Source of the DNA: a virus
Length of the DNA stretch: 44,840 bases
UHGV virus genome: UHGV-0716684
Strand: one strand, 5' to 3'
Within the stretch, counting starts at the first letter, position 1, and each line of letters starts with the position of its first letter. Both the position numbers and the translations under genes were made by a program. This document shows positions 3,253 to 39,419 of this stretch, one piece after another. Below the pieces are notes generated by a model. The model saw only the letters and a list, made by a program, of their open reading frames with translations. It was not told where the DNA came from and searched no databases.

Positions 3253-3316
3253 TGGGCTTTTCTAAAATAATTAATATGGTACTATTCACATATCAACTGA
3301 CTAAGGAGTAACTGAC

Positions 3317-6854: not shown

Positions 6855-6883
6855 TTGCACACCCCAACATAATAGGTTACTAT
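6855..6883 (+). promoter_or_regulatory. conserved phage promoter TTGCAC-N17-TACTAT with AATAG-N4-CTATT operator-like palindrome
   Basis: TTGCACaccccaacataataggtTACTATtcac; near-identical copies at 20383-20411 and 29690-29718 (minus strand). Confidence 0.5.
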
Positions 6884-6917
6884 TCACTTATCGAAACGAG
6901 ACATAAGGAATTTAGAA

Positions 6918-7136
6918 ATGAACAAAGCGACCGCAAGCGTAGTTTCCGCAATCAAAGAAGTTTACGGCATCGATATCTCAGAGCGCGTAATTATCGGGAA
7001 CAAGCGCAACTTCTTTACGTTCGACACCGACGGAATGGATGAAAATGATTTTGTTAACGTACAACGTTTCGCTAACGGTAAAGGACTTCGTAACGAGCCA
7101 GCGGGTTACAAGAAATTTGCTATCTACTTTAAATAA
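6918..7136 (+). CDS. hypothetical protein
   Basis: 72 aa ORF; AGGAA upstream. Confidence 0.5.
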   Translation: MNKATASVVSAIKEVYGIDISERVIIGNKRNFFTFDTDGMDENDFVNVQRFANGKGLRNEPAGYKKFAIYFK

Positions 7137-8492: not shown

Positions 8493-8524
8493 TCATTTAC
8501 ACAGACGAGACAGAGGAAAACGAA

Positions 8525-10234: not shown

Positions 10235-10543
10235 TTGGATAAATTTACTGAAACAGTGACGGGGTGGCTTCTCGCTGCCGCACTAGCCGGAGGGGTAATC
10301 GGCCTACGGCAACATAAGTCCGTTATTTCTGGCCCTATTGATGGCTTCTGCTTTATCGCTACCGGCTTCACCTGCGCCGTATTTGGTGCGCCTCTCGCGG
10401 CCCAATGGTTTGGTATTACCGGCGAACGCGAGATAGCTGGCCTGGGCTTCATTATCGCTATTCTCTGGATGCCTATCTATTCCCGCCTCTCCGGTATCGT
10501 CGCCGGAGAATACATCGCACGTCGAGGAGACCCGGATGAATGA
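10235..10543 (+). CDS. putative holin (three hydrophobic segments)
   Basis: 102 aa membrane protein immediately upstream of lysozyme; TTG start 6 nt after GGAGGA. Confidence 0.55.
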   Translation: MDKFTETVTGWLLAAALAGGVIGLRQHKSVISGPIDGFCFIATGFTCAVFGAPLAAQWFGITGEREIAGLGFIIAILWMPIYSRLSGIVAGEYIARRGDPDE

Positions 10544-10808
10544 GTTATTCTGGTTCGGCGGTATGCTGGCAATCGGTGGCACATCGCTGTTTAATGTATA
10601 CCACCCCAGTGTTGACGATGGGTTATTTGGTCGGGTGCTCTACATCCTGACCGCTATCGTTTGCGCTGCCGGATGCATCCACCTGTTACAGGGCAGCATG
10701 TCGCCAACGCTGCCTGGGACATTAATCACATTAGTTGCGCTGCGCCAGATTCGTCAGGCGTGGCTGTCATACGGAGGACATAAGCGTGTCTCGAAACATT
10801 TCAGATAA
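10536..10808 (+). CDS. putative holin/antiholin-like membrane protein (two hydrophobic segments)
   Basis: 90 aa; overlaps holin stop and lysozyme start. Confidence 0.5.
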   Translation: MNELFWFGGMLAIGGTSLFNVYHPSVDDGLFGRVLYILTAIVCAAGCIHLLQGSMSPTLPGTLITLVALRQIRQAWLSYGGHKRVSKHFR

Positions 10809-11271
10809 TGGGTTGCATTTTACCGCTGCATTTGAGGGATTCCGCGGAACTGCGTATCGCGCTACACCGAATGAGAAGTACCTTACAATAGGCTACGGAA
10901 GCTATGGCCCTCATGTTAAGGCTGGGCGGACCATCACTCCAGGGCAAGGCCTCCTGTTACTGAATCGTGATATGGCTAAGGCCGTAGCTGCGGTTGACGC
11001 AGCAGCGCACCATTCACTGACGCAGGCGCAGTTTGATGCTGTTTGCGACCTGGTCTATAACGCGGGCGCTGGCGTGATTGCTGCTACTACGGGCACGGGT
11101 AAGGCGCTGCGTTCTGGTGATATCACGACGCTGCGGGCTAAGCTGGCGCTGTTCATCAACCAGAATGGTAAACCGTTACTTGGTCTGCGTCGCCGTACTG
11201 CGGGTCGTCTGGCGTTGTTCGACGGTAAACAGTGGCAGGAGGCGGAGGCTATCGGGAGGGCTGTTAAATGA
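10786..11271 (+). CDS. endolysin, lysozyme (glycoside hydrolase family 24-like)
   Basis: GTG start 8 nt after GGAGG; motifs AAFEGFRGTAY and TIGYG typical of phage lysozymes. Confidence 0.8.
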   Translation: MSRNISDNGLHFTAAFEGFRGTAYRATPNEKYLTIGYGSYGPHVKAGRTITPGQGLLLLNRDMAKAVAAVDAAAHHSLTQAQFDAVCDLVYNAGAGVIAATTGTGKALRSGDITTLRAKLALFINQNGKPLLGLRRRTAGRLALFDGKQWQEAEAIGRAVK

Positions 11272-11534: not shown

Positions 11535-11555
11535 TCTGTTTTCTGTAATGACTAG

Positions 11556-15294: not shown

Positions 15295-16770
15295 ATGTTA
15301 ACTATGAACGGTCAGAATCAGGGTGTTAAGACTAAACACCGGGAATGGCTGCATCACTTCAATAAATGGCAGAAGGTACGCCACGCGCTGGAAGGCGACC
15401 TTATCCGTTACCTGCGCAACGTCGGGAAGAACGAACCAGACCCGACCTACGCGGCACAGCGTCAGGAAGAATACGAGAACGGCGCTATCTGCTACAACTT
15501 TACTAAACGTACCCTGGCGGGGATGGTTGGGTCCGTGATGCGCAAAGACCCCGAGCAGATTATCCCGCCTGAACTGGAGTACCTGTTACGTAATGCCGAC
15601 GGCTCCGGTGTTGGTCTGTGGCAGCACGCGCAGGACACGCTGATGGAGATTGACTCGGTGGGCCGTGGTGGGTTGCTGGTTGACGCCCCGGAGACCGCCG
15701 CGGCAACGGCGGCAGAGCAGAACGCGGGGTTATTAAACCCGGTCATCGCTTTCTATACCGCAGAGAACATCATCAACTGGCGACTGACTCGCGTCGGTTC
15801 AGTTAACCGCGTGACGATGGTTGTATTGCGTGAGGTATGGGAATACTCAGAACCGGGCGCAGAGTTCGAAACAAAGTTCGGTGAGCAATACCGCGTTCTC
15901 GATTTGATTGACGGTCGCTACCGTCAGCGCATTTACCGCTTTGACGCAGAAGGTGGCGCACAGGGTGAAGTAATCGAAATCTTCCCGGAACTCGGCGAAC
16001 AGTTACGTGGCAAAATCCCGTTCACGTTCATTGGTGCAAGCAACAACGACGCTACTATCGACGATGCGCCTTTGCTGCCGTTGGCTGAGCTTAATATCGG
16101 ACATTTCCGTAACAGCGCAGACAATGAGGAATCCAGCTTCGTTGTAGGCCAGCCAACTCTGTTCATCGCCCCCGGTGAGAACATGAGCATGGAACAGTGG
16201 AAAGAAGCTAACCCTCACGGCGTGCGCATGGGGTCACGTTCAGGCCATAACATCGGCTACGGCGGCAATGCATTTCTTGTTCAGGCAGGAGAGAACAACC
16301 TCGCCAAACAGAATATGCTGGATAAAGAGAATCAGGCCATTCAGATTGGCGCGCAGCTTATCACCCCGACGCAGCAAATCACCGCCGAATCCGCCCGCCT
16401 GCAACGCGGCGCCGATACGTCAGTCATGGCAACAATCGCGCGTAACGTAAGCATGGCGTATACCGATGCATTGCGCTGGGTAGCGGCGATGCTAGGGTTG
16501 CGCGAAGACACAGAGATTGAATTCAAGCTGAACATGGAGTTCTTCCTACAACCGATGACAGCTCAGGACCGCGCCCAGTGGATGGCAGACATTAACGCTG
16601 GCTTGCTGCCCGCCACCGCTTACTATGCTGCGTTGCGCAAGGCGGGTGTAACTGACTGGAAGGATGAAGACATTCAGAACGCTATCGAGGATGCACCATT
16701 GCCGTTGGGGGCCGTTACTCAGGTGACGGGGGAGATTCCGCAGTCGGCGCAGCAGCAACAGCAGGAGTAA
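15295..16770 (+). CDS. portal protein
   Basis: 491 aa ORF directly after terminase large subunit; size and position typical. Confidence 0.75.
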   Translation: MLTMNGQNQGVKTKHREWLHHFNKWQKVRHALEGDLIRYLRNVGKNEPDPTYAAQRQEEYENGAICYNFTKRTLAGMVGSVMRKDPEQIIPPELEYLLRNADGSGVGLWQHAQDTLMEIDSVGRGGLLVDAPETAAATAAEQNAGLLNPVIAFYTAENIINWRLTRVGSVNRVTMVVLREVWEYSEPGAEFETKFGEQYRVLDLIDGRYRQRIYRFDAEGGAQGEVIEIFPELGEQLRGKIPFTFIGASNNDATIDDAPLLPLAELNIGHFRNSADNEESSFVVGQPTLFIAPGENMSMEQWKEANPHGVRMGSRSGHNIGYGGNAFLVQAGENNLAKQNMLDKENQAIQIGAQLITPTQQITAESARLQRGADTSVMATIARNVSMAYTDALRWVAAMLGLREDTEIEFKLNMEFFLQPMTAQDRAQWMADINAGLLPATAYYAALRKAGVTDWKDEDIQNAIEDAPLPLGAVTQVTGEIPQSAQQQQQE

Positions 16771-16799
16771 ATATTAAGGCCCCTATTGGGGCCTTAATC

Positions 16800-18212
16800 T
16801 CACTTATTCCATACCAATTTCTCTTGTCCGCTATCCCATATGCGGGATACACCTTCCGCAGCGTACCATTCCGACTGTGTAAGCCCCTCTGGCGCTTTGT
16901 TCCATTTTTGCCGTGATTCTGTTTTAGTCGCATTGTTTACGACGATGCGGAATCCACATCTCACAGAAGCCTTTTTAAACCCCGCTGATAGGTATGATTC
17001 TCCGGTAAATAAATCCCGGTCAGTGTAGGTAAAACCGTCGGTGATGCTATAACGGCGCACGGCATAGGCCCATAGCTTCGACAGCCCGCCTACCACCGAA
17101 CACGACGTAGCGTACCGCACAAGCTCCCATTCACCTTTTCTACACGTCAGCGTCATTACCGCAACAATCTTTTCTTCATAAACGAGGCTGATATACCTCG
17201 TCGAGTTACGGAATCCTTGAATGTGGTTCTCCTCCAGGAAACGCTCTGCACATATTTTGTTAATCTCTTTTACATGGCATTTGCGGGCGAAAACTCGCAA
17301 AGAAGAGACGCCGACGGAATGGCCGATTATTTTCTTTATTATTTCTTTTTTATGCAGCCATAGCTCATCCCTTATTGACAGGAGCCGGAACCCTCTTTCC
17401 TCAACGGCGACTCTTTTCTCCATGTGATACTTTCTCCCCTTCCCGGCAGCTTCACTGTGCCAGTACAGGCCGTTTATTTCTATCGCCAGATTATGTTGCG
17501 GTATTAAAATATCTATCTCTCTTGGGTGGATAAGACTTCTATCATTCCGATGATATTCCACCCCCATGCTATCGAGAAATTCACAGACTTCATCCTCCAC
17601 TTTACTACGCCCGAACGACGCGCACCGCGGGCACCCTCTACCCTGAAAAATGTTACCAAGCGTAGAGGCCCATTCATGGCCTTTTTGACACCTCAGTGTC
17701 GATGGCGCACGGCAGATATCCCCTGAATAAGACACCAGTTCAAAACCAGTGCCGCGTAACCTTTCCTCTATTTCTCCGATCTCGAGCCTTTTTCTGTTAG
17801 TGCTGCAATTCGGGCAATGACTTTTACCCCTTAAAATGTCGCTGCCGGTAGCGGACCAGACGAACCCGCATTTACATCTGAACGTTGATTTCCCACTTAC
17901 AGCACCTGCGTAATTAAGGCATTCAACCCCATTAGGCCACTCTGTTACTTTCGCCCGTTTTTCCGCAGCGTAGCATTGGGGGCAACCATGACCGTTTAGG
18001 ACGGTATTGGCCTTTGTCTCCCACACATGGCCACTACGGCAGCGGAATTTAGACTTAAGTTTAGAGTGGCCTGCATACTCAATTACTACTATACCCCGTG
18101 ACGCCAGTCTCAGGTTTACATCTTCTTCAGTTAAACGTCTGGACCCCATTAAAATACCCTCCGCTTCTTCTAGTATAAAGATTGTGTATATACATGTACC
18201 ACAGCAAGACAT
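16800..18212 (-). CDS. putative multi-domain homing-type endonuclease (zinc-ribbon repeats plus PD-(D/E)XK Vsr/DUF559-like nuclease motif)
   Basis: Repeated C..GH.W...G.GCP.C units; motif EIDILIPQHNLAIEINGLYWHSE; opposite strand inside the packaging/head module. Confidence 0.55.
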   Translation of the reverse strand: MSCCGTCIYTIFILEEAEGILMGSRRLTEEDVNLRLASRGIVVIEYAGHSKLKSKFRCRSGHVWETKANTVLNGHGCPQCYAAEKRAKVTEWPNGVECLNYAGAVSGKSTFRCKCGFVWSATGSDILRGKSHCPNCSTNRKRLEIGEIEERLRGTGFELVSYSGDICRAPSTLRCQKGHEWASTLGNIFQGRGCPRCASFGRSKVEDEVCEFLDSMGVEYHRNDRSLIHPREIDILIPQHNLAIEINGLYWHSEAAGKGRKYHMEKRVAVEERGFRLLSIRDELWLHKKEIIKKIIGHSVGVSSLRVFARKCHVKEINKICAERFLEENHIQGFRNSTRYISLVYEEKIVAVMTLTCRKGEWELVRYATSCSVVGGLSKLWAYAVRRYSITDGFTYTDRDLFTGESYLSAGFKKASVRCGFRIVVNNATKTESRQKWNKAPEGLTQSEWYAAEGVSRIWDSGQEKLVWNK

Positions 18213-18252: not shown

Positions 18253-19329
18253 ATGCGTTACACTGTCGATACTACAGGAGGGCTTATGAGCTTACTTACA
18301 TCTCTAATTAGCCACCAGATATGGCTGCAACGTACTGCATCCGGTGAGGTGAAAGACCTAGCACCGTTCATTCAGGAGATGCGGGACGAAATCAAACGGC
18401 AGGTGCTGTTATTCGGCGATGATGGCCGCAGCACCGCCCGGCTGAATAAACTGTTACGCGACCTTGAAGAAGCACTGGCTGGACTTACAGTTGACTGGCA
18501 AACAAAGCTGACAGAAGACCTTAAGGAACTGGCGGCATATGAGGCTGAGTGGAACGTAAAGACACTTACCACCAACGTTAACGCGGAATTTGTTACACCT
18601 ACCGCCGAGCAGGTGTGGGCCGCTGCCGAGTTTCAACCTCTGTCGCTAAGTGACAAGCCCGTTGACTTCACCAAGCTGATGTCAGGCTGGGGTGAAGCGG
18701 AGGTCGCGCGCCTTGTAACTGGCGTTAAGATGGGCTTTGTGCAAGGCCAAACCACACGGCAGATTGTTAAAGAAGTAGTTGGTAAAGGCGGCCTGGCTGA
18801 CGTATCAGAGAAACACGCTGCTACAGTAATCCGCACCGCGCTGTCCCACGTGTCCAACGAAGCCCGTAATGAGACGTACCGCCAGAACGACGACATTATC
18901 GAGAAATATGAGTGGGTGTCTACTCTTGATTCTAGGACCTCAGCCGTTTGCAAGGCCAGAGATGGGATGACGTGGGAAATCGGTAAAGGGCCGATGCCCC
19001 CCGCCCATCCGAACTGCCGGTCGTGCACGGCTCCGGTAATCAGTTCGGAGTTCGACTTCCTGGATAAAGGCGCAAAACGCGCGGCTAAGGGTGCGGACGG
19101 AGGTACTCAGGTAAGCGCAGACACCACTTACTACGAGTTCCTGAAACAACAACCGGCATGGTTTCAGGACCAGGCTCTAGGCCCGGTGCGGGGTAAGATT
19201 TTCCGTAACAGCGGTATATCGCCGGAAGAGTTTCGCGTAATATCTGTAGATGGTTTCGGGAATCCGCTCACGCTTAAGCAGATGGCGGAACTCGATAAAC
19301 GTGTTGCTGATTATCTGAAAGGGGAATAA
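18253..19329 (+). CDS. head morphogenesis protein (SPP1 gp7 / Mu F-like minor head protein)
   Basis: 358 aa; conserved PMPPAHPNCRSC region; position after portal. Confidence 0.75.
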   Translation: MRYTVDTTGGLMSLLTSLISHQIWLQRTASGEVKDLAPFIQEMRDEIKRQVLLFGDDGRSTARLNKLLRDLEEALAGLTVDWQTKLTEDLKELAAYEAEWNVKTLTTNVNAEFVTPTAEQVWAAAEFQPLSLSDKPVDFTKLMSGWGEAEVARLVTGVKMGFVQGQTTRQIVKEVVGKGGLADVSEKHAATVIRTALSHVSNEARNETYRQNDDIIEKYEWVSTLDSRTSAVCKARDGMTWEIGKGPMPPAHPNCRSCTAPVISSEFDFLDKGAKRAAKGADGGTQVSADTTYYEFLKQQPAWFQDQALGPVRGKIFRNSGISPEEFRVISVDGFGNPLTLKQMAELDKRVADYLKGE

Positions 19330-19790: not shown

Positions 19791-19793
19791 TAT

Positions 19794-19820
19794 AAGGCCC
19801 CGAAAGGGGCCTTAATTTTA
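19794..19820. terminator. conserved terminator hairpin aaggccccgaaaggggcctt
   Basis: Perfect 8 bp stem, GAAA loop, T-rich flank; same hairpin at 27155 and 39396. Confidence 0.6.
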
Positions 19821-20357
19821 ATAAGCTAACCAAGAACCTCTTTCTGTGAACATCAATTTATTTCCTTTTAAGAGATTCAGAACCGCAGGGATAACTTGTA
19901 TGTTTTCTGCGACGTGCAGCCCTGAGACAGTTTTAGCCCGCAACGGCAGCATGTGGTCGATATGCCATAAGAAACCTGTTTCACCCGCTCGCAGTTGACA
20001 TAGCTCCTGCGCTTCTTCGAATACTAATAGGTCAAATTCATCATTCCTGATGTTTATACTCCTGGCTCTTTTTGCCGTTTTATACTTCAACCTTTGGGCT
20101 TTCCTGGCGGTTTTGTTTTTCTTACGGTACTCCGCATCAATTTCGGCTAATCGGTCTTTATTTTCTTGCCTCCATTTTGCGTTTTTAGCCGCCCAAGAAA
20201 CAGCGTTTCGTTCTCGGTACGATTTTTGTATCTCTTTAGTGCACTCATAGCACCCGGTGCGAACATGCCTTTTCGCAACATGCCCGCGTTTACACGGTTT
20301 GCCAGTGAAGTAATAATCATCCCCCGCGGCTATGGCTTCTGAACGCTTAGTGAGCAT
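19818..20357 (-). CDS. HNH-type endonuclease
   Basis: 179 aa; CKRGH..C.EC zinc-binding N-terminus and WHIDHMLPL...N HNH-like core. Confidence 0.6.
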   Translation of the reverse strand: MLTKRSEAIAAGDDYYFTGKPCKRGHVAKRHVRTGCYECTKEIQKSYRERNAVSWAAKNAKWRQENKDRLAEIDAEYRKKNKTARKAQRLKYKTAKRARSINIRNDEFDLLVFEEAQELCQLRAGETGFLWHIDHMLPLRAKTVSGLHVAENIQVIPAVLNLLKGNKLMFTERGSWLAY

Positions 20358-20382
20358 AAAACCCCCTGTTTAAGTTAACCGA

Positions 20383-20411
20383 ATAGTACCCTATTATATT
20401 GGTGTGTGCAA
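20383..20411 (-). promoter_or_regulatory. promoter TTGCAC-N17-TACTAT with GAATAG-N4-CTATT palindrome
   Basis: Reverse complement TTGCACacaccaatataatagggTACTATtc; upstream of the HNH gene. Confidence 0.5.
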
Positions 20412-20686
20412 ACTATTTGTTTACATATTCCAGTTATTCCACTCAATTGTAAATGTTGGAATAAACTATTCGAATAGTTGACTTTTCACTAAAAATATGA
20501 TAAGCTCCACCTGAGCTTGTGAAGTATGAACAAGCGACCGCGGCGCGGGCAGGTAACGGAGCCGGATGTTAAGTCCGAGTGTAGTTACGCTGACGCGTTC
20601 GGAAGGGCCGTACTCTATTGCTTGTGTAAAAAGTAACTGGTTTACTGAGATTACGCCGTTTCTATGTTTAAATGATAAGGACTAGC

Positions 20687-20712
20687 GCCCCGCTTTAAGG
20701 CGGGGCTTTACT
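20687..20712 (+). terminator. terminator-like hairpin (gccccgc-tttaag-gcggggc, then tttacttat)
   Basis: GC stem followed by T-rich tract, located in the leader just upstream of the i-spanin RBS. Confidence 0.45.
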
Positions 20713-20730
20713 TATCGAGAAAGGAGAAAC

Positions 20731-21117
20731 ATGAATCTTAAAGCAACTGTCGTAGCGGGGGCATGTTTCATCGTCCTGTTATACGCACACGGCTACTTTC
20801 AATACCGCAGCGGTTGGGACGAAGGCCGGGCGAATCTCGTTTCGCAGCAACAGCAGGAAGCACAGGCTGAGTTAGCGAAGAAAACACAACGGCAGCAGCA
20901 GGATGAGTCGAAGGCCGCAGCCGCTGATAACGAAGGCAAGACGAAATCAGAGGTAATTACACGTGAAGTCGTTAAGTACATTAAAACGCCCGGTCGCAGC
21001 GTGTGCACTTTCGATGATGCTCGCGTCCTGCTCAAGTCCCGCGCCGTCGCAAACGCCAATTCCATCCCCGGATACGACAATGATGCAGCCGCCGTGCAAA
21101 CTGGCTCCGCCAAGTAA
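20731..21117 (+). CDS. i-spanin (Rz-like)
   Basis: 128 aa; N-terminal transmembrane segment, Q/E/K-rich coiled-coil-like middle; AAGGAGAAAC RBS. Confidence 0.6.
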   Translation: MNLKATVVAGACFIVLLYAHGYFQYRSGWDEGRANLVSQQQQEAQAELAKKTQRQQQDESKAAAADNEGKTKSEVITREVVKYIKTPGRSVCTFDDARVLLKSRAVANANSIPGYDNDAAAVQTGSAK

Positions 21118-21226
21118 CGACGCTGACGAGGATTTGGCTATCGACGTTCAGAACGCCGAATGCGTACGGCAACTGAGGCTGAAAGTGTTCATGTTGCAGG
21201 ACTACGTGAGGAATATTCTGGAATAG
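20963..21226 (+). CDS. o-spanin (Rz1-like lipoprotein), overlapping the i-spanin in another frame
   Basis: GTG start; signal peptide with lipobox LASC; proline-rich mature part; extends past the i-spanin stop. Confidence 0.55.
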   Translation: MKSLSTLKRPVAACALSMMLASCSSPAPSQTPIPSPDTTMMQPPCKLAPPSNDADEDLAIDVQNAECVRQLRLKVFMLQDYVRNILE

Positions 21227-21308
21227 TTGCCTTGCATGTTGGAATAATTTATTCTTGACATGTAAATCCGGGTGGCCCGGGTTCCAACGTCCAGGGGACA
21301 TACTGACT

Positions 21309-27150: not shown

Positions 27151-27154
27151 AACT

Positions 27155-27179
27155 AAGGCCCCGAAAGGGGCCTTTTCTT
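27155..27179. terminator. conserved bidirectional terminator hairpin aaggccccgaaaggggcctt
   Basis: T-rich tract on both strands; convergent gene ends. Confidence 0.65.
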
Positions 27180-29649: not shown

Positions 29650-29689
29650 TTTAATTCCTTATTTAAGTTAATAACGTTGGTGTAAGTGA

Positions 29690-29718
29690 ATAGTACCCTA
29701 TTATATTGGGGTGTGCAA
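29690..29718 (-). promoter_or_regulatory. promoter TTGCAC-N17-TACTAT with GAATAG-N4-CTATT palindrome
   Basis: Reverse complement TTGCACaccccaatataatagggTACTATtcac; essentially identical to 6855-6883. Confidence 0.5.
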
Positions 29719-39390: not shown

Positions 39391-39395
39391 AAACT

Positions 39396-39419
39396 AAGGC
39401 CCCGAAAGGGGCCTTTTCT
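39396..39419. terminator. conserved bidirectional terminator hairpin aaggccccgaaaggggcctt
   Basis: Identical to hairpins at 19794 and 27155; between convergent genes. Confidence 0.65.

Follow-up and report, generated by a model that had tools for sequence, protein, structure and literature searches.

Two open reading frames at positions 20731-21226 of the virus genome UHGV-0716684 overlap in different frames and raise two questions: whether they encode the two components of a spanin and, if so, how such a pair comes to lie away from the holin and endolysin genes of the same genome. A preliminary description of this DNA had read the ORFs as an i-spanin/o-spanin pair of overlapped architecture and had considered the division of lysis functions between two transcription units to be unusual. 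The stretch analysed (the window, 44,840 nt) is a whole Kagunavirus genome, in which gene order agrees with that of the genus.

Architecture of the overlapping gene pair

The pair comprises the following features:
20731..21117, plus strand, i-spanin gene: ATG start, 128 aa; from the ORF list and phrog_2536
20963..21226, plus strand, o-spanin gene: GTG start, 87-aa precursor, predicted mature protein of 64 aa
20963..21117, plus strand, dual-coding overlap of 155 nt: the C-terminal 51 codons of the i-spanin gene in frame 0
20722..20726, plus strand, i-spanin Shine-Dalgarno AGGAG: from the sequence; AGGAG or AGGGG kept in all related loci
20950..20953, plus strand, o-spanin Shine-Dalgarno GAGG: 9 nt 5' of GTG 20963

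The o-spanin ORF begins at a GTG codon located 232 nt inside the i-spanin ORF and is thus read in the +1 frame; its last 109 nt lie past the i-spanin stop, and within the overlap the +1 frame encodes the o-spanin signal peptide and linker. The overlapped architecture initially proposed for the locus is confirmed by these coordinates, and an o-spanin gene overlapping the i-spanin gene is among the features by which Kongari et al. (2018) recognise two-component spanins.

Conservation of this arrangement was followed in 47 related loci from IMG/VR. The i-spanin ORF encodes 128 aa in 41 of the loci and 118-129 aa in the others, and in 46/47 the +1 frame continues uninterrupted past the i-spanin stop. 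An o-spanin GTG or ATG is present at the identical position in 46/47 loci, as ATG in five Jerseyvirus loci, and is preceded by GAGG in 45/47, with L049 carrying GAGT. Locus L038, which has neither GAGG nor the start, represents the FSL SP-031 type, a known variant of 'separated' architecture. Thus, the assignment of GTG 20963 as the o-spanin start is borne out by a start codon and a GAGG conserved at the same position.

Predicted features of the two proteins

The N-terminus of the i-spanin is hydrophobic over residues 3-19 (LKATVVAGACFIVLLYA), with a mean Kyte-Doolittle value of 2.04 over these 17 residues, and the Kyte-Doolittle scan detected no second hydrophobic segment in the protein. A transmembrane helix is predicted at approximately residues 5-22, followed by a long periplasmic helix; the remainder of the protein is polar with abundant Gln, Ala, Lys and Glu, and a single cysteine, Cys92, is found outside the membrane segment in the predicted periplasmic portion. 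In the AF2 model a continuous helix extends over residues 3-84 (pLDDT ∼80 over residues 1-60), followed by a short helix of low confidence at residues 94-107, pLDDT being <50 beyond residue 82. A single N-terminal transmembrane domain, as characterises i-spanins, is therefore indicated by both hydrophobicity and the modelled helix, and an N-in/C-out topology would follow. For the i-spanin of the 'Jersey' family, to which we return below, two helices separated by a linker containing beta strands were predicted by Kongari et al. (PMC6139136).

The o-spanin precursor begins with MKSLSTLKRPVAACALSMMLAS, continued past the predicted cleavage point by CSS, a sequence consisting of a basic n-region (MKSLSTLKR), a hydrophobic core and the lipobox L-A-S-C, in which Cys23 is the lipobox cysteine. 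A signal peptidase II signal with an invariant lipobox cysteine is thus predicted, and the +2 position is occupied by Ser24 and not by Asp, as expected for sorting to the outer membrane. Nine prolines occur in the first 29 residues of the mature protein. Both the LASC lipobox and the proline-rich character noted previously were seen in the translation and in the lipobox scan, such that the two ORFs encode, respectively, a protein with a transmembrane segment and one with a lipoprotein signal. Besides Cys23, the o-spanin contains Cys45 and Cys67, which are invariant among relatives, and together with Cys92 of the i-spanin these provide cysteines available for intermolecular disulfides, as in spanins. 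In the AF2 model the Pro-rich linker is disordered and a C-terminal helix occupies residues 53-86 with pLDDT of 90-97, coinciding exactly with the segment under strong purifying selection described below. Hydrophobicity peaks in the signal peptide and the C-terminus forms a charged amphipathic helix; the C-terminal hydrophobic segment of a unimolecular spanin of the T1 gp11 type is therefore absent. Both AF2 models were generated from single sequences with low overall confidence (mean pLDDT of 63.6 and 62.5) and, at this modest confidence, fit a spanin pair.

Assignment to the 'Jersey' spanin family

Profile comparison placed both proteins in families annotated as 'Rz-like spanin'. The i-spanin matches phrog_2536 over residues 1-128 (E 2.7e-54), while the o-spanin matches phrog_5672, a profile of 47 positions, over residues 41-87 (E 1.4e-29) and phrog_1267 over residues 11-86 (E 4.2e-18). 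Weak but consistent profile links were also detected to the Rz-like spanin PHROGs 8821, 1152, 214 and 1403. A Pfam search of both spanins returned no model above the curated threshold, the best sub-threshold scores being 17.4 bits for DUF2514 (cut-off 26) and 13.3 bits for LysC (cut-off 27), and the Pfam Rz and Rz1 families were not matched at E up to 0.1. NCBIfam yielded nothing relevant, with no spanin model reached, and a sequence search of the PDB gave no curated-threshold match for the spanins or for the adjacent nuclease-like ORF. By these profile comparisons the pair is assigned to the spanin functional class and, within it, to a sequence family other than that of lambda or P2.

The locus is 94-95% identical at the nucleotide level to dozens of E. 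coli Kagunavirus (Guernseyvirinae) genomes, and amino acid identity to members of the genus is 88-95%, including 90.6% (i-spanin) and 88.5% (o-spanin) to the proteins of phage K1H. More distantly, tblastn identified the o-spanin product in 665 phage records with identity down to 35-40%. An i-spanin and an o-spanin are annotated at the same place in many Kagunavirus records, the annotation of phage Ivi being identical, with genes of 387 and 264 nt offset by 232 nt; an o-spanin CDS is absent from several GenBank records of close relatives.

Kongari et al. defined a 'Jersey' family of overlapped spanins with members including Jersey, SETP3, K1G, K1H, K1ind1-3, HK578, SO-1 and others, in which the Jersey genes overlap by 155 bp and Cys45 and Cys67 of the o-spanin are constant across the family (PMC6139136). 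Both proteins of the window are similar to those of this family, and the 155-bp overlap and the Cys45/Cys67 pair are reproduced. The position of the genes between head-morphogenesis/decoration and scaffold genes is likewise shared. Differences are limited to the lipobox, LASC in the window compared with LSAC in other Kagunaviruses and LSGC or LNGC in Jerseyviruses, and to the upstream minus-strand gene, which is a different mobile nuclease from that in most relatives; otherwise no difference of substance was found. On sequence grounds we place the pair in this 'Jersey' family of overlapped spanins. The earlier reading of the two ORFs as an i-spanin/o-spanin pair is therefore upheld, with coordinates, PHROG matches, signals and conservation in agreement.

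Coding in two frames

Variation by codon position was determined in 40 unique gap-free sequences, with the following results for the three segments of the locus:
Segment encoding i-spanin only: i-frame third position most variable (0.78 of sites); 53% of codon differences synonymous in the i-frame
Overlap: i-frame third position most variable (0.69); codon differences 45% synonymous in the i-frame and 20% in the o-frame
Segment encoding o-spanin only, past the i-spanin stop: o-frame third position variable at 0.78 of sites versus 0.17-0.37 at the other two positions; codon differences 82% synonymous in the o-frame and 12% in the other frame

Past the i-spanin stop, codon-position variation thus switches to the o-frame, in which 263 synonymous and 58 non-synonymous codon differences were counted. 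This pattern clearly indicates that the C-terminal part of the o-spanin is translated and constrained. It also bears directly on the proposition that 20963-21226 is an unexpressed frame, open by chance over a real gene, as could be suspected from its overlap with another gene, its GTG start and its omission from the GenBank records mentioned above. The substitution pattern past the i-spanin stop effectively refutes this proposition, and recovery of the product from the 665 phage records at such distant identity argues against it as well; we consider a chance frame next to impossible.

Within the 155-nt overlap the 40 sequences show no synonymous excess for the o-frame, which means that the case for the signal-peptide and linker portion rests on conservation of the open frame, the start, the Shine-Dalgarno sequence and the lipobox cysteine. 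The last of these is present in 46/46 loci of the overlapped type, within the sequences LASC, LTSC, LSAC, MSAC, LSGC or LNGC. The lack of a synonymous excess would also be expected if the downstream product began at ATG 21080 (MMQPPCK..., 48 aa); such a product would have neither lipobox nor signal peptide and would not be a lipoprotein of the outer membrane. This shorter product corresponds to the o-spanin CDS annotated in phage Schulenburg, equivalent to 21080-21226 of the window, and phrog_5672 similarly covers residues 41-87 only. However, the frame is open back to the conserved GTG or ATG in 46 of the 47 loci, with GAGG kept in 45, the lipobox cysteine is found in all 46, and phrog_1267 matches from residue 11. 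The full 264-nt gene is annotated in phage Ivi and the 155-bp overlap reported by Kongari et al. requires the upstream start; these authors also observed that o-spanin starts are often mis-called (PMC6139136). We therefore regard initiation at 21080 as highly improbable. GTG 20963 is the start to use when annotating the o-spanin, a point of practical relevance as a truncated o-spanin without signal peptide is found in many database records and in phrog_5672.

The distant lysis cassette and a search for other spanins

The lysis cassette contains the following genes:
10235..10543, plus strand, holin, class I-like: phrog_2359 'holin', E 3.6e-29; first gene of the cassette
10536..10808, plus strand, second holin or antiholin: phrog_2508 'holin', E 5.8e-33
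10735..11271, plus strand, endolysin of the lysozyme family: Pfam Phage_lysozyme, E 1.7e-25

The matches to PHROGs 2359 and 2508 and to Pfam thus confirm the holin, holin-like and lysozyme genes recognised previously at 10235-11271. The true endolysin start is probably GTG 10786, in register with the phage Ivi annotation, and the protein lacks a hydrophobic N-terminus, which suggests a soluble (non-SAR) endolysin. From the endolysin stop to the i-spanin ATG the distance is 9,459 nt (∼9.5 kb), close to the ∼10 kb originally given, and the pair is physically separated from the cassette.

In the ORF list between 11200 and 13500, past the endolysin gene, there is no ORF for a membrane protein or lipoprotein, and a lipobox regex scan of all six frames of the 44.8-kb window revealed no other credible lipoprotein ORF. 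The remaining regex matches were rejected as out-of-frame ORFs, all but one of 36-47 codons, the exception being a Cys- and Leu-rich out-of-frame ORF of 120 aa at 31671-31309 on the minus strand. A second spanin, two-component or unimolecular, near the endolysin or elsewhere was accordingly rejected, neither the six-frame scan nor the ORF list having yielded a candidate, and the pair remains the only Rz/Rz1-like candidate in the window, as had been proposed.

Separation from the lysis genes nevertheless allows a different interpretation of the pair. Phage lipoproteins also act in superinfection exclusion and receptor masking, as exemplified by T5 Llp and the Cor proteins, and the two proteins could have such a role in the envelope, with outer-membrane disruption accomplished otherwise or not needed. 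Neither gene adjoins the holin/endolysin cassette, some phages do not possess any spanins (PMC6139136), and no experimental test or proof of function for a spanin of the Jersey family was found in the literature searched. On the other hand, an overlapped pair consisting of a transmembrane-domain protein and a lipoprotein, with periplasmic cysteines and a constrained C-terminal helix, is the defining signature of spanins, and the links to PHROGs 8821, 1152, 214 and 1403, weak individually, consistently point to the same function. In addition, these genomes already carry a separate Imm-like superinfection immunity gene, and the genome offers no alternative spanin candidate. An envelope role other than lysis thus appears quite improbable, and the two ORFs very probably encode a two-component spanin of the 'Jersey' overlapped family in a Kagunavirus phage.

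Genomic position in related and unrelated phages

The spanin genes are located in the head-morphogenesis block, after a Hoc-like decoration gene and a slot occupied by a mobile nuclease and before the scaffold and major capsid genes. The neighbours had been named as an HNH endonuclease and the scaffold gene. The downstream scaffold gene (phrog_206) and the nuclease-like character of the upstream minus-strand ORF (phrog_1035 'endonuclease VII') were substantiated; this ORF has no Pfam HNH match. Identity of the ORF with the 'beta clamp' gene of relatives was also considered and rejected (BLASTP E 0.11).

The characterisation of this layout as unusual is not supported, since it is constant across Kagunavirus, Jerseyvirus and Cornellvirus, is found in Dhillonvirus as well, is catalogued (PMC6139136) and has a textbook precedent in T4. 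In the genome announcement of phage Schulenburg it is stated outright that the spanins lie apart from the holin and endolysin, and the separation is described for Golestan (PMC7203180), fBC-Eco01 (PMC9825357) and the Jerseyvirus SeF1 (PMC9409062). In Cornellvirus FSL SP-031 homologues of both spanins, annotated as hypothetical, precede the putative scaffold and coat protein genes. Dhillonvirus, a genus outside the Guernseyvirinae, has the spanins at the same position in the head module: in PaulFeyerabend and SO-1 the stop codon of the head-morphogenesis gene and the ATG of the i-spanin gene overlap, and in PaulFeyerabend holin, holin and endolysin genes are directly upstream of terminase. From the lysis cassette the order continues with terminase, portal, head morphogenesis, spanins, scaffold and capsid, and its occurrence across these genera indicates that these siphoviruses have kept the layout stably for a long time. 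Thus, an unlinked overlapped spanin pair is the already known and published norm for the lineage.

In T4, too, the spanin genes lie away from t, the holin gene, and e, the endolysin gene (PMC6139136, Fig. 8 legend). The T4 o-spanin resembles that of the window in having a predicted C-terminal helix; however, PseT.3/PseT.2 are of the 'separated' architecture, their sequence families are unrelated to those of the window pair, and all lysis genes are scattered in T4 whereas in the window the two holins and the endolysin are clustered and only the spanins lie elsewhere. P2 LysB/LysC, the prototype of the overlapped architecture, shares with the window pair an o-spanin which starts in the +1 frame inside the i-spanin gene and continues past its stop, and the combination of a transmembrane-domain protein with a lipoprotein. 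Significant sequence similarity between the two is lacking (the sub-threshold LysC score given above), and the P2 genes adjoin the holin and endolysin in a lysis cassette, in contrast to the head-module position ∼9.5 kb away observed here. The window pair resembles lambda Rz/Rz1, the experimentally characterised two-component spanin, in predicted topology, in its lipoprotein signal, in the abundance of proline in the o-spanin and in having periplasmic cysteines, and the membrane-fusion mechanism is presumed to be the same. Lambda Rz1 is, however, wholly embedded in Rz whereas the window genes merely overlap, the mature o-spanin is longer in the window (64 aa) with a predicted C-terminal helix, and the window pair does not adjoin the equivalents of S and R, nor does it match Pfam Rz or Rz1.

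The upstream region and possible transcription units

Candidate regulatory elements upstream of the i-spanin gene are:
20381..20397, plus strand, phage promoter-like motif GAATAGTACCCTATTAT: 350 nt upstream of i-spanin; repeat D9, with 29683-29718
20479..20507, plus strand, sigma-70-like promoter candidate TTGACT-17-TAAGCT with TG extension: read from the sequence
20687..20706, plus strand, G+C-rich hairpin GCCCCGC-loop-GCGGGGC followed by TTTACTTAT: 44 nt upstream of the i-spanin ATG

The window is enriched in the 17-nt motif GAATAGTNNNCTATTAT, with 16 matches at ≤3 mismatches against 3.3 expected, a number reached in 0/100 shuffles, and the motif agrees with the PHIRE 'phage promoter' consensus for fBC-Eco01 (PMC9825357). 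Plus-strand copies occur at 11550, just past the endolysin gene, at 20381, before the i-spanin gene, and at 29688, before the tail assembly chaperone gene; in most Kagunavirus loci a copy is found at -350 relative to the i-spanin gene. Strong hairpin terminators are located at block ends at 19793, 27154 and 39395. From these promoter-like and terminator-like motifs, the copy at 20381 is the probable start of a unit containing the spanin, scaffold and capsid genes. On that reading, the spanins would head a unit that includes scaffold, capsid and tail-tube genes and the holin and endolysin genes would end a separate unit starting near 8500, such that the two transcription units for lysis functions envisaged previously are plausible.

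The sigma-70-like candidate was not among the picks of the promoter scan, which applied stricter rules. Its -35 element abuts a perfect 16-bp palindrome at 20464-20479, and this block is near-invariant in relatives. The hairpin at 20687..20706 was the top-ranked terminator-like site in the scan, although its T-tract is weak; among 45 related loci scanned, 33 have it at the same position with an invariant stem and a variable loop. It is a candidate terminator-like or RNA-stability element of the leader.

The leader is 94-96% identical even in loci in which the spanins are 66-82% identical. It has diverged in typical Jerseyviruses, however, with 57% identity, and special 'ultra-conservation' was rejected for this reason; the data agree with mosaic recombination in which the breakpoint lies close to where the i-spanin gene begins. 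An Rfam search of the 370-nt region upstream of the spanins returned no match, either at the gathering threshold or with the limit relaxed to E 1, the fold z-score was only -1.8, and identity with a known RNA was likewise rejected. The 36-aa ORF at 20526-20636, a 'hypothetical protein' in Schulenburg, was rejected as coding as it lacks codon periodicity; frameshifts or stops interrupt it in 7/36 loci.

It is conceivable, but in our judgement unlikely, that the leader at 20431-20730 constitutes a regulated attenuator similar to the lambda pR'-tR' module, a suggestion made at the level of motifs. Such a module would combine the promoter-like elements with the 16-bp palindrome next to the -35 and with the hairpin of invariant stem. 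Were this the case, the attenuator would gate the scaffold and capsid genes as well as the spanins, whose timing would then be set apart from that of the holin and endolysin.

Proposed function in lysis

We infer the topology, lipidation, complex formation, lysis role and transcription of the pair from sequence, by analogy with lambda Rz/Rz1. The 128-aa i-spanin would be anchored in the inner membrane by its N-terminal helix with the long helical domain projecting into the periplasm. In the 87-aa o-spanin precursor, Cys23 would receive the lipid and signal peptidase II would remove the signal peptide, after which Ser at +2 would direct the mature protein to the outer membrane. The conserved C-terminal helix of the o-spanin may then bind the C-terminal part of the i-spanin, forming a complex which spans the periplasm through the peptidoglycan mesh and which is probably joined by intermolecular disulfides involving Cys92 of the i-spanin and Cys45 and Cys67 of the o-spanin. 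Once the holin and endolysin, encoded ∼9.5 kb upstream, have cleared the peptidoglycan, the complexes would fuse or disrupt the outer membrane and lysis would be complete. Expression would most likely occur with the late structural genes from the phage promoter ∼350 nt upstream.

In lambda, it is established that spanins build up in the envelope and do no harm before the peptidoglycan is broken down. If spanins are inert until that point, late expression would suffice, co-transcription with the holin would be needless and a location in the head operon would be unproblematic. The pair would complete the lysis set of this phage, consisting of a holin, a second holin or antiholin, a soluble endolysin and an i-/o-spanin. 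Beyond correct annotation the finding is of little importance; it illustrates that late synthesis may be the sole requirement of spanins with respect to timing.

Start codon of the o-spanin

Several database entries, including the o-spanin CDS annotated in the related phage Schulenburg and the PHROG family phrog_5672 (47 positions), begin the o-spanin at MMQPPC, corresponding to 21080-21226 here and to 6882-7028 in the related locus L001. A protein initiated at this position possesses neither signal peptide nor lipobox. The true start is likely the conserved GTG or ATG located 117 nt upstream.

Possible regulatory elements at the spanin genes and elsewhere in the genome

The spanin pair is bordered by two non-coding stretches:

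20431-20730, non-coding leader upstream of the spanins (palindrome, 36-codon ORF and hairpin)
21227-21308, short spacer from the o-spanin stop to the scaffold gene

In the leader, a perfect 16-bp palindrome, AACTATTCGAATAGTT, at 20464-20479 abuts a TTGACT -35. Frameshifts interrupt the 36-codon ORF in 7 of 36 relatives. The hairpin at -44 relative to the i-spanin start varies in its loop, and its stem is invariant. This layout recalls a promoter-leader-terminator module; an Rfam search of the leader returned no match. The ATGTTGGAATAA element found at 20453 recurs in the spacer, followed by TTGACA and a CCGGG-TGG-CCCGG hairpin, and no recognisable -10 accompanies the TTGACA there. The spacer is conserved at 91-100% in Kagunavirus loci.

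A promoter-like motif, GAATAGTNNNCTATTAT, is strongly enriched in the genome, with 16 matches against 3.3 expected. The motif scan located copies at:

131, 3227, 3271, 6869, 8478 and 41681, minus strand
11550, 20381 and 29688, plus strand

A TTGACA-type -35 is present at four minus-strand copies (TTGACA at 131, 3227 and 41681, TTGATA at 3271) and TCGATA occupies the -35 place at 6869. Those at 20381 and 29688 have a 36-nt block in common, which lacks a good -35. The motif copies may represent two candidate promoter classes, early and late, bearing an inverted repeat, AATAG/CTATT, to which a regulator could bind.

Near-identical hairpins of one family, with the form TAAGGCCCC(N4)GGGGCCTTA, are found at gene-block ends:

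16775-16798, hairpin
19793-19816, hairpin
27154-27177, hairpin
39395-39418, hairpin

Some of these separate convergent genes and resemble bidirectional terminators.

Mosaicism and putative mobile genes around the spanin locus

Region 20358-21226 was compared with four related IMG/VR loci, L035, L036, L038 and L049. The leader is 94-96% identical in these loci and the Hoc-like decoration gene 85-87%, with the spanin genes at just 66-82%. The disparity between leader and spanin genes implies a putative recombination breakpoint near the i-spanin start.

Two minus-strand ORFs lie upstream of the spanins:

16800-18212, minus strand, 470-aa ORF flanked by the portal gene at 15295-16770 and the head-morphogenesis gene at 18253-19329
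19818-20357, minus strand, nuclease-like ORF

The 1.4-kb insertion at 16800-18212 is specific to this genome, as megablast against 50,697 phage records matched its flanks alone. The ORF product carries DUF4379 treble-clef zinc fingers (Pfam, E 8e-13), shows weak similarity to REase_MTES_1575 and Vsr endonucleases, and is probably a free-standing homing-type nuclease.

The ORF at 19818-20357 had been labelled an HNH endonuclease in the preliminary description. A PHROG search assigned it to phrog_1035 ('endonuclease VII', E 8.5e-32), but searches of Pfam and PDB found no match. It is not homologous to the 'beta clamp' gene occupying the same slot in Schulenburg. Copies of 97% identity occur in some Salmonella Jerseyviruses, with weaker, scattered matches in Klebsiella, Vibrio and Xanthomonas phages. 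In the majority of related loci the content of this slot varies or is absent, which suggests a mobile-nuclease or moron hot spot adjoining the spanins.
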